Shown: positions 4,051-5,342 of the stretch, one piece after another | How the letters are laid out: each line of letters starts with the position of its first letter | How positions within the stretch are numbered: position 1 is the stretch's first letter | NCBI GenBank assembly: GCA_036867785.1 | Contig: CP145411.1 | Location: 682,001 to 746,000, forward strand | Source: Plasmodiophora brassicae | Lineage: Eukaryota | DNA: 64,000 bases | Reading direction: 5' to 3' | Position numbers and translations under genes: made by a program | The notes under the pieces: model-generated | What the model was told of the DNA's origin: nothing | Databases searched by the model: none | The model's input: only the letters and a program-made list of their open reading frames with translations

Positions 4051-5342
4051 TTACCGAGCGACGTACTGGCAAGCTAGAAACCACACAAGAGTTAGACATG
4101 CAATGACAGGGCAGGGCTAGCGGCAGCAAGCGACACGTACGACGTCGGGTCCGAAGTTTGTACAAGACGCGATAACCGCAGTTTCTGCACCGAATGGGGT
4201 CGCGACGCCGGATCTTGTTGACGTCTCCACAGCCACCACATTCGTAGTCCGTTGCCCTGCGACAACAGGTTAGCCCCGTGTCATGTCAGCGAACGCAAGA
4301 TGCAGTGCCTCACTTGGCAATGTCTTCTCTCTGCAGGTACAGCTTCGAGCCCGACTTCACGCCTCGAAGATAGATCATCTCGTTCTCGGCCAGTATTTCG
4401 CCGTCGAACGTGAGGCGATCCTCGCCAACCAAAGCCTGCCCGCCACTTACGATACCATACAGTTCCTTGATCATTTGAACCGTAAAATGGTCGTTGACGG
4501 TGAGCTCGATGGGTCGCTCCTCGTCATCTTCGTCAACCACCGCATTCGCAGTAACAACATAGATCGGGAACGGCGAGGCTTCGAAGTCGACAGCCTAAAT
4601 AACGCAGCAGAACTGTCACGTCTTCAGACACGGGCACCAGTTGCGGGACGTGTACCGAGTTGGGTCCAAGTTCACATTGGTAGATCGTGTCGGAATCGGC
4701 AAGTTCACGACCGCGGTACGAGCACTTTCCAGGGACGGCGTTACGAGCGGTGGAATTGCCGAACGCCACTTTCAGGTCGAATATCGTTGAAAAGTCGTAC
4801 ATTAGCTGGGCCTGCTCCAGTTGACACTGGCGATCACGGACGACAATCCGAATTCGGGAGATAAGCTTCGCCCCATGACCAATCCCGTAGGCCGCCAACG
4901 TGGCGTGGTCTTCAAGCTCGGAGCCCTTGTAGGACAGCCGTTCTATGACAGTTCCAATCTCATCTTCATATTCTTTCCGCACCTATAATCACCAAGGAGC
5001 CATAAGGAACGCGTGGACAGATCAGCAGGTGGTGATTCAAACCCGTTGGATCGTCCAGGATGCCGACACAGGAATAACCTGATTATCGTGCGCATCATCC
5101 ACAATGGTGATGTCGAATTTGTTCCATTTGATGAAGACGGCGGCCTGCCCAGTGAACTGGACCGGTGCGTCCAGCGGCAGCGGCGCATCATTGGCATCAA
5201 CCAGCTCGTGGTCGGGCGTCAGCTCCTGCTGCCGCTGCAACAGCTGCCAGAGATCACCGTACGTCTCACAGTACGTATCCGGGTTGGCACAGTCCACGAC
5301 GAGGGCGCGCCCGGCATCGGTGGTGACTTTCACAACCTTCAT
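4051..5342 (-). CDS. Tandem ubiquitin-like domain protein fused to a C-terminal RPB12/RPABC4 zinc ribbon
   Basis: Up to four beta-grasp-like units (e.g. [51 protein letters not shown]) spliced in frame (intron 4257-4313) to [45 protein letters not shown]. Confidence 0.8.

Follow-up and report, generated by a model that had tools for sequence, protein, structure and literature searches.

Does the small zinc ribbon encoded at this locus of Plasmodiophora brassicae form a stand-alone RNA polymerase subunit RPB12/RPABC4, or is it the tail of a larger ubiquitin-like (UBL) protein, and would such a tail stay attached? We addressed this question in a stretch of 64,000 nucleotides (nt) from GenBank assembly GCA_036867785.1 (contig CP145411.1, positions 682,001 to 746,000), hereafter the window, in which all coordinates are numbered. 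The UBL-RPB12 gene lies on the minus strand at 5342..4051, has five exons and encodes a product of 348 amino acids (aa), in which four divergent UBL domains are followed by a complete RPB12/RPABC4 zinc ribbon. The gene is real and expressed, and we favour, with a probability of roughly 0.6, the reading that its single 348-aa product is an old, conserved, expressed and attached four-UBL-RPB12 subunit.

One message and one open reading frame for the UBL array and RPB12

On the minus strand, the six-frame listing of open reading frames (ORFs), read over 6200..3500, showed three long open stretches together with a short one for the C-terminus. The exons were fixed using P0001 as a guide, a 348-aa NCBI 'unnamed protein product' of P. 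brassicae that was recovered by a ribbon-exon query restricted to longer proteins. P0001 carries PF00240 and PF03604, is 100% identical over the ribbon exon, and differs from the gene product at one of 348 residues (residue 228, V for I). After splicing, the coding sequence comprised 1047 nt, running from the A of the ATG at 5342, which is the first in-frame ATG following the upstream stop, to the final base of the stop codon at 4051. Genes of P. brassicae average 4 introns of 60 bp, according to the genome paper (PMC4471660), and the UBL-RPB12 gene fits this average: its four introns measure 60, 61, 57 and 67 nt; all are GT..AG. Two ORFs in the six-frame listing differ in frame because intron 2 shifts the reading frame. 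For the junction of UBL3 with UBL4, a micro-intron of 25 nt and an assembly frameshift had also been considered; both were ruled out, the real intron being 61 nt long (4655..4595).

The joint between the UBL array and RPB12 falls at intron 3, which has a CTAAC branch-like motif 12 nt ahead of its AG and splits codon K303 as AA|G; if it is left unspliced, the frame is ended by a TGA at 4312..4310. The ribbon frame is coding over 4256..4141 and 4073..4054. The ribbon exon was claimed to have no ATG of its own in the sequence-only reading of this DNA, and this held: a TGA lies upstream at 4288..4286, with no in-frame ATG in between.

Twenty sequencing runs from 8 studies matched the gene; 14 were guessed to be RNA and none was recorded as RNA. 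Logan contigs of runs X1, X4, X5 and X7 (four studies) were aligned to 3900..5600. The results showed that all four introns were skipped exactly at the predicted GT..AG borders, with each joint present in 4/4 runs (contig joints 4073>4141, 4255>4313, 4593>4655 and 4980>5041, whose CT..AC ends are GT..AG on the minus strand). The UBL4-to-ribbon exon joint was observed directly in these contigs, as expected from the 57-nt GT-AG intron with an AA|G junction that had been proposed at 4257-4313. All five exons lay within single contigs in X1 (1798 nt), X4 (1384 nt) and X5 (1431 nt), with no further differences, and X7, a strain with 10 differences, gave identical joints on shorter contigs. Near the gene start, the contigs ended at 5381 (X4) and 5346 (X5), and the transcript continued past 3900, with UBL-RPB12 contigs reaching at least 150-230 nt below that position. 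Among the pieces listed for X1, X4, X5 and X7, there was no intron-retaining contig, and no contig among those listed showed a UBL gene stopping at 4310 with a separate RPB12 start exon. Such contigs are uninformative on transcript ends, levels and rare isoforms, and overlapping transcripts can merge in them. Since the introns are present in the DNA of the window itself, the simplest account of copies without introns in four studies is that they are cDNA. These results show that the UBL array and RPB12 form one message and one ORF.

Two database records touch on this structure. The NCBI title of P0001 says '(mitochondrion)'. This organelle label appears to be a mistake in the record, given the spliceosomal introns of the gene and a longest contig of 1,875,601 bases. 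P0002 (213 aa, Logan contig of 3930 nt) is a genomic ORF of a close relative with open stretches where introns 3 and 4 lie, between ...REDFAR and ...VSYECGG and after ...YKLRTG, respectively. Because P0002 reads through at these places, the positions of both introns seem to be common to P. brassicae and this relative.

Domain content and homologues in Rhizaria

The ribbon exon matched the whole of Pfam PF03604 (RNA polymerase 7 kDa subunit; profile 1-32/32, E 2.5e-14, 53.1 bits against a cut-off of 24), placed at aa 307-338 of the whole protein, which agrees with the earlier proposal that the last two exons encode RPB12. PF00240 (ubiquitin) matched aa 90-141, corresponding to UBL2 (E 5.4e-13, 48.9 bits vs a gathering score of 25.4). 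UBL4 gave a weak match under the cut-off (14.9 bits, E 0.023), and UBL1 and UBL3, without a PF00240 match by sequence, were recognised by fold only. An AlphaFold2 model built with the 25-sequence alignment described below (pLDDT, the predicted local distance difference test, 88.7; pTM, the predicted template modelling score, 0.71) contained four strand-strand-helix-strand beta-grasp units at about 3-73, 76-141, 143-215 and 218-297, nearly linker-free and followed by a small all-strand ribbon at 305-336. The top Foldseek match of this model in the PDB was linear tetra-ubiquitin (7yui_A, E 1.2e-22, 316 aligned columns), and subsequent matches were tri- and di-ubiquitin, ISG15 and the USP7 UBL array. 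The four UBL units postulated from the sequence alone were therefore recovered by fold, with only UBL2 exceeding the cut-off by sequence. The pairwise identity among the four UBLs was only 19-26%, so the units are not a recent repeat.

The family profile placed the C-terminal module among known polymerase subunits. Its positions 305-353 matched the RPB12 chains of solved RNA polymerases (Pol II/IV/V and Pol I-III) with E values of 3e-21 to 2.7e-13, including the plant (8hil_L, E 3e-21), mammalian (28jc_L, E 2.9e-16) and yeast (1i3q_L, E 4.9e-16) chains, and archaeal subunit P was matched at E 1.2e-6 (4qiw_P).

A HMMER search against 1.84 billion cluster representatives returned 949 matches at E<=1e-3, 98 at <=1e-10 and 11 at <=1e-30. 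The ribbon motif, written as a regular expression, was present in 79 of the 151 top-hit sequences. Its start lay at or beyond residue 251 in 40 of them, between 101 and 250 in 22, and no later than residue 100 in 17; this last group consists of stand-alone RPB12s and fragments. The first two groups together make up 62 proteins (cluster representatives), besides the one encoded here, with a ribbon starting past residue 100, and many of these are 330-500 aa long and align end to end. The 72 top hits without the ribbon motif were mostly long polyubiquitin-like proteins matching UBL2, and included P0031, whose ribbon is degenerate.

In alignment A1, 25 members were aligned end to end, with identities to P0001 of 22-31%, except for the close relative P0003 (57%). 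The invariant columns were G120 in UBL2, D244 in UBL4, and C309, C312, G313, C326, K336, R338 and Q344 in the ribbon and tail, while C329 and R348 were each kept in 24/25. Pfam recognised PF03604 in 24/25 and PF00240 in 22/25 of these members, and each of the four UBLs was alignable to its counterpart across phyla. As judged from the aligned sequences, these results show that the RPB12 module, with its ribbon and basic C-terminal tail, is complete and under strong constraint. Many of the homologues lie on mRNA-sized contigs (1.1-2 kb), with the UBLs and the ribbon in one uninterrupted ORF.

When 30 clusters were looked up, three had species names, namely Bolivina argentea (with a Nonionella stella member), Nonionella stella and Bigelowiella natans, and one further cluster had an MMETSP member. 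Automatic JGI names (RPABC4 or RPC12/RpoP) were attached to 6 of the 30 looked-up homologues, and the rest were nameless. All four named species belong to Rhizaria: Plasmodiophora to Endomyxa, Bigelowiella to Cercozoa, and Bolivina and Nonionella to Foraminifera. These results show that the predicted four-UBL-RPB12 architecture is conserved as a whole in at least three rhizarian phyla. The central claim of the sequence-only reading, that RPB12 is encoded as the tail of a four-UBL protein, is hence upheld by the spliced contigs, by the public gene model (347/348 residues) and by the conservation of the architecture in dozens of distant homologues, and the fusion was found in related protists (Bigelowiella, Bolivina and Nonionella). 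Other searches added little to this range: metagenome contig scans with P0001 and with P0092 gave no locus, and word-index sequence searches gave close relatives only (3/5, 3/2455 and 4/8000 candidates).

A tree built from 43 full-length rows was unresolved at depth, with 20 of its 40 inner branches open, and showed a foraminiferal clade of 12 rows as well as two Nonionella paralogues. These two diverged copies of the fused gene in Nonionella stella (P0156 and P0034) belong to separate foraminiferal sub-clades; a duplication has therefore taken place within this group. P0031 of Bigelowiella natans (433 aa) sits on a long branch and is missing the fourth ribbon Cys (...CCVN-GHR... vs ...CRxCGxR... 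in the others). The best non-RPB12 matches to UBL2-UBL3, at 25-30% identity, were P0021, P0033 and P0040; these and similar proteins (1000-1700 aa) consist of many ubiquitin-family units, with 19 stretches in P0021. Such long polyubiquitin-like proteins may be the pool that supplied the UBL array.

Fate of the fusion product and comparison with known systems

Known ubiquitin and UBL hydrolases need a diglycine for cleavage. No diglycine was found within 12 residues before the ribbon in any of the 63 fused sequences (0/63), and one was found within 22 residues in 1/63, which extends to the family the claim that the last UBL of this gene ends without a diglycine. In place of ubiquitin's L-R-L-R-G-G, the family has hydrophobic-x-hydrophobic-x-R-E-D/E, with strict RE[DE] in 32/63 fused sequences and R or K at position 298 in 25/25. 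Because RGG is replaced by the conserved R-E-D/E, we infer that the UBL array would escape ubiquitin-type processing. There was also no conserved internal Met able to start a small RPB12 (M250 in 2/25 and M282 in 5/25).

A different arrangement was seen in P0109 (136 aa, ENA contig of 682 nt), in which a near-canonical ubiquitin ending in LRLRGG (PF00240, E 1.9e-29) is followed, two residues further, by a complete RPB12 ribbon (PF03604, E 7.2e-17). The first ~23 residues of P0109 resemble a read-through intron. This protein looks like a separate, probably cleavable ubiquitin-RPB12 fusion of another organism, represented by a single contig that may be a chimeric assembly.

The sequence-only reading had named two possibilities, a UBL array that stays on the polymerase and a neofunctionalised paralogue; the absence of a diglycine (0/63), together with the near-invariant ribbon and tail, leads us to favour an attached, functional subunit. 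The C-terminal module would act as the RPB12 subunit of nuclear RNA polymerases; the 348-aa chain would remain whole and enter the polymerases via its tail, with the four-UBL arm left outside; in the polymerases of these organisms, RPB12 would thus be extended at its N-terminus by an arm of ~300 residues. In solved structures, the RPB12 N-terminus is disordered and exposed at the enzyme surface. According to PMC2680338, yeast RPB12 is essential and common to all three polymerases, its deletion is rescued by archaeal subunit P, which is without the eukaryotic N-terminal extension, removal of that extension affects only growth at high temperature, and a 17-residue C-terminal RPB12 peptide is enough for basic functions in vitro. 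Since yeast is viable without the N-terminal extension and a C-terminal peptide suffices, the N-terminus is the end where an addition would be least harmful. Two roles of the arm are the most likely: a built-in aid to the folding and solubility of a tiny zinc protein, comparable to the part that ubiquitin plays for eL40 and eS31, or a fixed docking surface on the assembled enzymes. UBL2 has a conserved Ser, in the motif L-S-x-x-G, at the place of ubiquitin Ile44, a residue with a role in binding. Because this position is Ser in UBL2, the arm probably does not engage the common ubiquitin receptors in the manner of ubiquitin.

Several points weigh against an attached subunit. Both the intact 348-aa chain and its seat in any polymerase are inferred, and the conserved R-E-D/E ahead of the ribbon could be a site for a protease of a non-ubiquitin type. 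If P. brassicae or any of the other species also had a stand-alone RPB12, the fused copy might serve a different purpose. P0031, without its fourth Cys, is not recognised by PF03604 and is possibly a copy under relaxed constraint; in that case, Bigelowiella natans would be expected to have a further RPB12. The evidence on range consists of the four named species, with names on only 3 of the 30 clusters looked up, and the RNA nature of the four runs is a guess, their contigs being blind to transcript ends and rare isoforms.

These points lead to other explanations of the same gene. The fusion might be a precursor that is made whole and then cleaved ahead of the ribbon, perhaps at R-E-D/E or after it, by an enzyme distinct from the usual ubiquitin hydrolases; a small RPB12 would be freed, and the UBLs would help only temporarily in the production of the zinc ribbon, like the ubiquitin part of ubiquitin (Ub)-eL40 and Ub-eS31. 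The layout of N-terminal UBL(s) and a tiny C-terminal zinc protein matches the classical ubiquitin-ribosomal-protein fusions, the protein-language-model neighbours of P0001 and P0006 were Ub-eL40 and Ub-eS31 clusters (scores 0.75-0.82, lead level only), the residues immediately ahead of the ribbon are conserved, and P0109 suggests that a cleavable form of the pairing exists elsewhere. However, the lack of a diglycine throughout the 63 fused sequences, the conservation of four separate UBLs, which seems more than a disposable aid requires, and the low identity between the units, which speaks against a recent repeat, make a precursor distinctly unlikely.

We also regard it as unlikely that a normal small RPB12 is kept alongside the fusion, with the fused copy being a second, specialised protein, such as a variant subunit for one polymerase or condition, or a ribbon used outside transcription. 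Duplication does occur in the family, as the two Nonionella stella copies show, and the degenerate ribbon of Bigelowiella natans is the best hint in this direction. Set against it are ribbon and tail residues that are invariant or nearly so despite an overall identity of 22-31%, which is the pattern of full polymerase-interface constraint, the matches of the family profile to RPB12 chains of solved polymerases (up to E 3e-21), and the polymerase-subunit names given by JGI to 6/30 homologues. Extremely improbable is an artefact, in which a UBL gene that stops at the TGA at 4312..4310 and a separate, neighbouring RPB12 gene were merged via a chance GT..AG. The unspliced frame does stop at 4310, and contigs may merge overlapping transcripts, but the exon 3-exon 4 joint itself was present in 4/4 runs, the ribbon exon is without an in-frame ATG, and distant homologues have the UBLs and the ribbon in one ORF on mRNA-sized contigs. 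An attached four-UBL-RPB12 subunit therefore remains the reading that we favour. A stronger version of it, that the uncleaved tetra-UBL fusion is the sole RPB12 across Rhizaria, arose in a single ancient event that marks the group, and gives Pol I, II and III a permanent arm of ~300 residues, is put forward as a tentative idea, which we hold to be possible and somewhat doubtful. If it were true, these polymerases would have an arm that no studied polymerase has, which would give them their own docking or quality-control handle, and a single ancient event would be a rare genomic change usable alongside the polyubiquitin insertion, another such change.

The product was compared with known proteins of similar parts. 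Stand-alone RPB12/RPABC4/ABC10-alpha (archaeal RpoP) shares the C-x2-C...C-x2-C ribbon and the basic tail with Y-K-x-R-T and a terminal R; it measures 46-76 aa in solved structures, whereas the product here has 348 aa, a ribbon from residue 307 and ~300 extra N-terminal residues. Ub-eL40/UBA52, Ub-eS31/RPS27A and FUBI-eS30 (FAU) likewise join an N-terminal ubiquitin-fold module to a tiny basic subunit in one ORF. They carry one near-canonical ubiquitin or one UBL ending in diglycine and are cleaved, and eL40 and eS31 bind zinc. Cleavage of the ubiquitin/UBL-ribosomal protein fusions is also described in PMC6721733. Unlike them, the gene studied here has four divergent UBLs, no diglycine and a polymerase subunit as the partner. 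Linear polyubiquitin, ISG15, FAT10/UBD and the USP7 HUBL array resemble the arm in their head-to-tail beta-grasp domains, with ISG15, UBD and USP7 among the structural or profile matches; in contrast to these tandem-UBL proteins, the arm consists of non-repeat units, has no conjugation tail and ends in a polymerase subunit. The non-ribosomal ubiquitin fusions of Bigelowiella natans and Guillardia theta (PMC6332867) are alike in organism group and in having ubiquitin-fold modules on unrelated proteins. The terms 'RNA polymerase', 'RPB12' and 'RPABC4' occur 0 times in the main text of PMC6332867, whose supplements may list the gene.

Our literature searches found no published description of a UBL-RPB12 fusion, with the same proviso on supplements, and the fusion goes unmentioned in the available parts of a foraminiferal survey and of the P. 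brassicae genome paper (PMC4471660). The gene model and the automatic names are already public and the fusion is unnamed in them, so the present result is a recognition and description, and adds no new sequence. Core subunits of the polymerases are usually regarded as almost fixed across eukaryotes. A conserved 300-residue ubiquitin-fold extension suggests lineage-specific assembly, turnover or regulation of the polymerase in a large, little-studied group that takes in a major crop parasite (clubroot), foraminifera and chlorarachniophyte algae. The extension also bears on a long-standing puzzle, the joining of ubiquitin-fold modules to tiny zinc proteins that belong to large machines. The cases known so far are ribosomal and cleaved, and UBL-RPB12 adds one that is polymerase-linked and apparently uncleaved. 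If confined to Rhizaria, the fusion would be a simple presence/absence character for the group.

Feature coordinates and neighbouring genes

The exons, introns and domains of the gene are listed in Table 1. A motif scan of the six frames found no other RPB12 ribbon within the 64-kb window.

Table 1. Exons, introns and domains of the UBL-RPB12 gene, in coordinates of the window.
Feature	Coordinates	Strand	Remarks
Exon 1, codons 1-100	5043..5342	-	ATG 5342..5340; UBL1 and first part of UBL2
UBL1, aa about 2-73	5339..5124	-	within exon 1
Intron 1	4983..5042	-	60 nt, GT..AG, phase 0, inside UBL2; skipped in 4/4 runs
Exon 2, codons 101-209	4656..4982	-	remainder of UBL2, up to aa ~141 (4860), and the greater part of UBL3, beginning at aa 143 (4856)
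Intron 2	4595..4655	-	61 nt, GT..AG, phase 0; skipped in 4/4 runs
Exon 3, codons 210-302 and two bases of K303	4314..4594	-	end of UBL3, and UBL4
UBL4, aa 217-300	4573..4322	-	within exon 3
Intron 3	4257..4313	-	57 nt, GT..AG, phase 2; UBL array/RPB12 joint; skipped in 4/4 runs
Exon 4	4141..4256	-	zinc ribbon and start of basic tail
RPB12/RPABC4 zinc ribbon, aa 307-338	4246..4151	-	Cys 309, 312, 326, 329
Intron 4	4074..4140	-	67 nt, GT..AG, phase 1, CTAAC motif; skipped in 4/4 runs
Exon 5	4051..4073	-	last residues (P)CQYVAR and stop TAA 4053..4051

On the plus strand, a divergent neighbour at 5403..7511 encodes an FCH/F-BAR domain (5966..6436, PF00611, E 1.1e-12) and an SH3 domain (6696..7511, E 1.2e-8); in the 5' part of this neighbour, X5 and X7 contigs skipped a GT..AG intron of 71 nt (about 5446..5516). 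Because the contigs of this neighbour start within ~60 bases of the UBL-RPB12 ATG, a single, very short bidirectional promoter region probably serves both genes. Directly downstream of the UBL-RPB12 gene, the minus-strand ORF at 3146..3496 is the first exon of an Sm-like protein gene, with an LSM domain at its end (PF01423, E 2.5e-14, profile 2-41/66).

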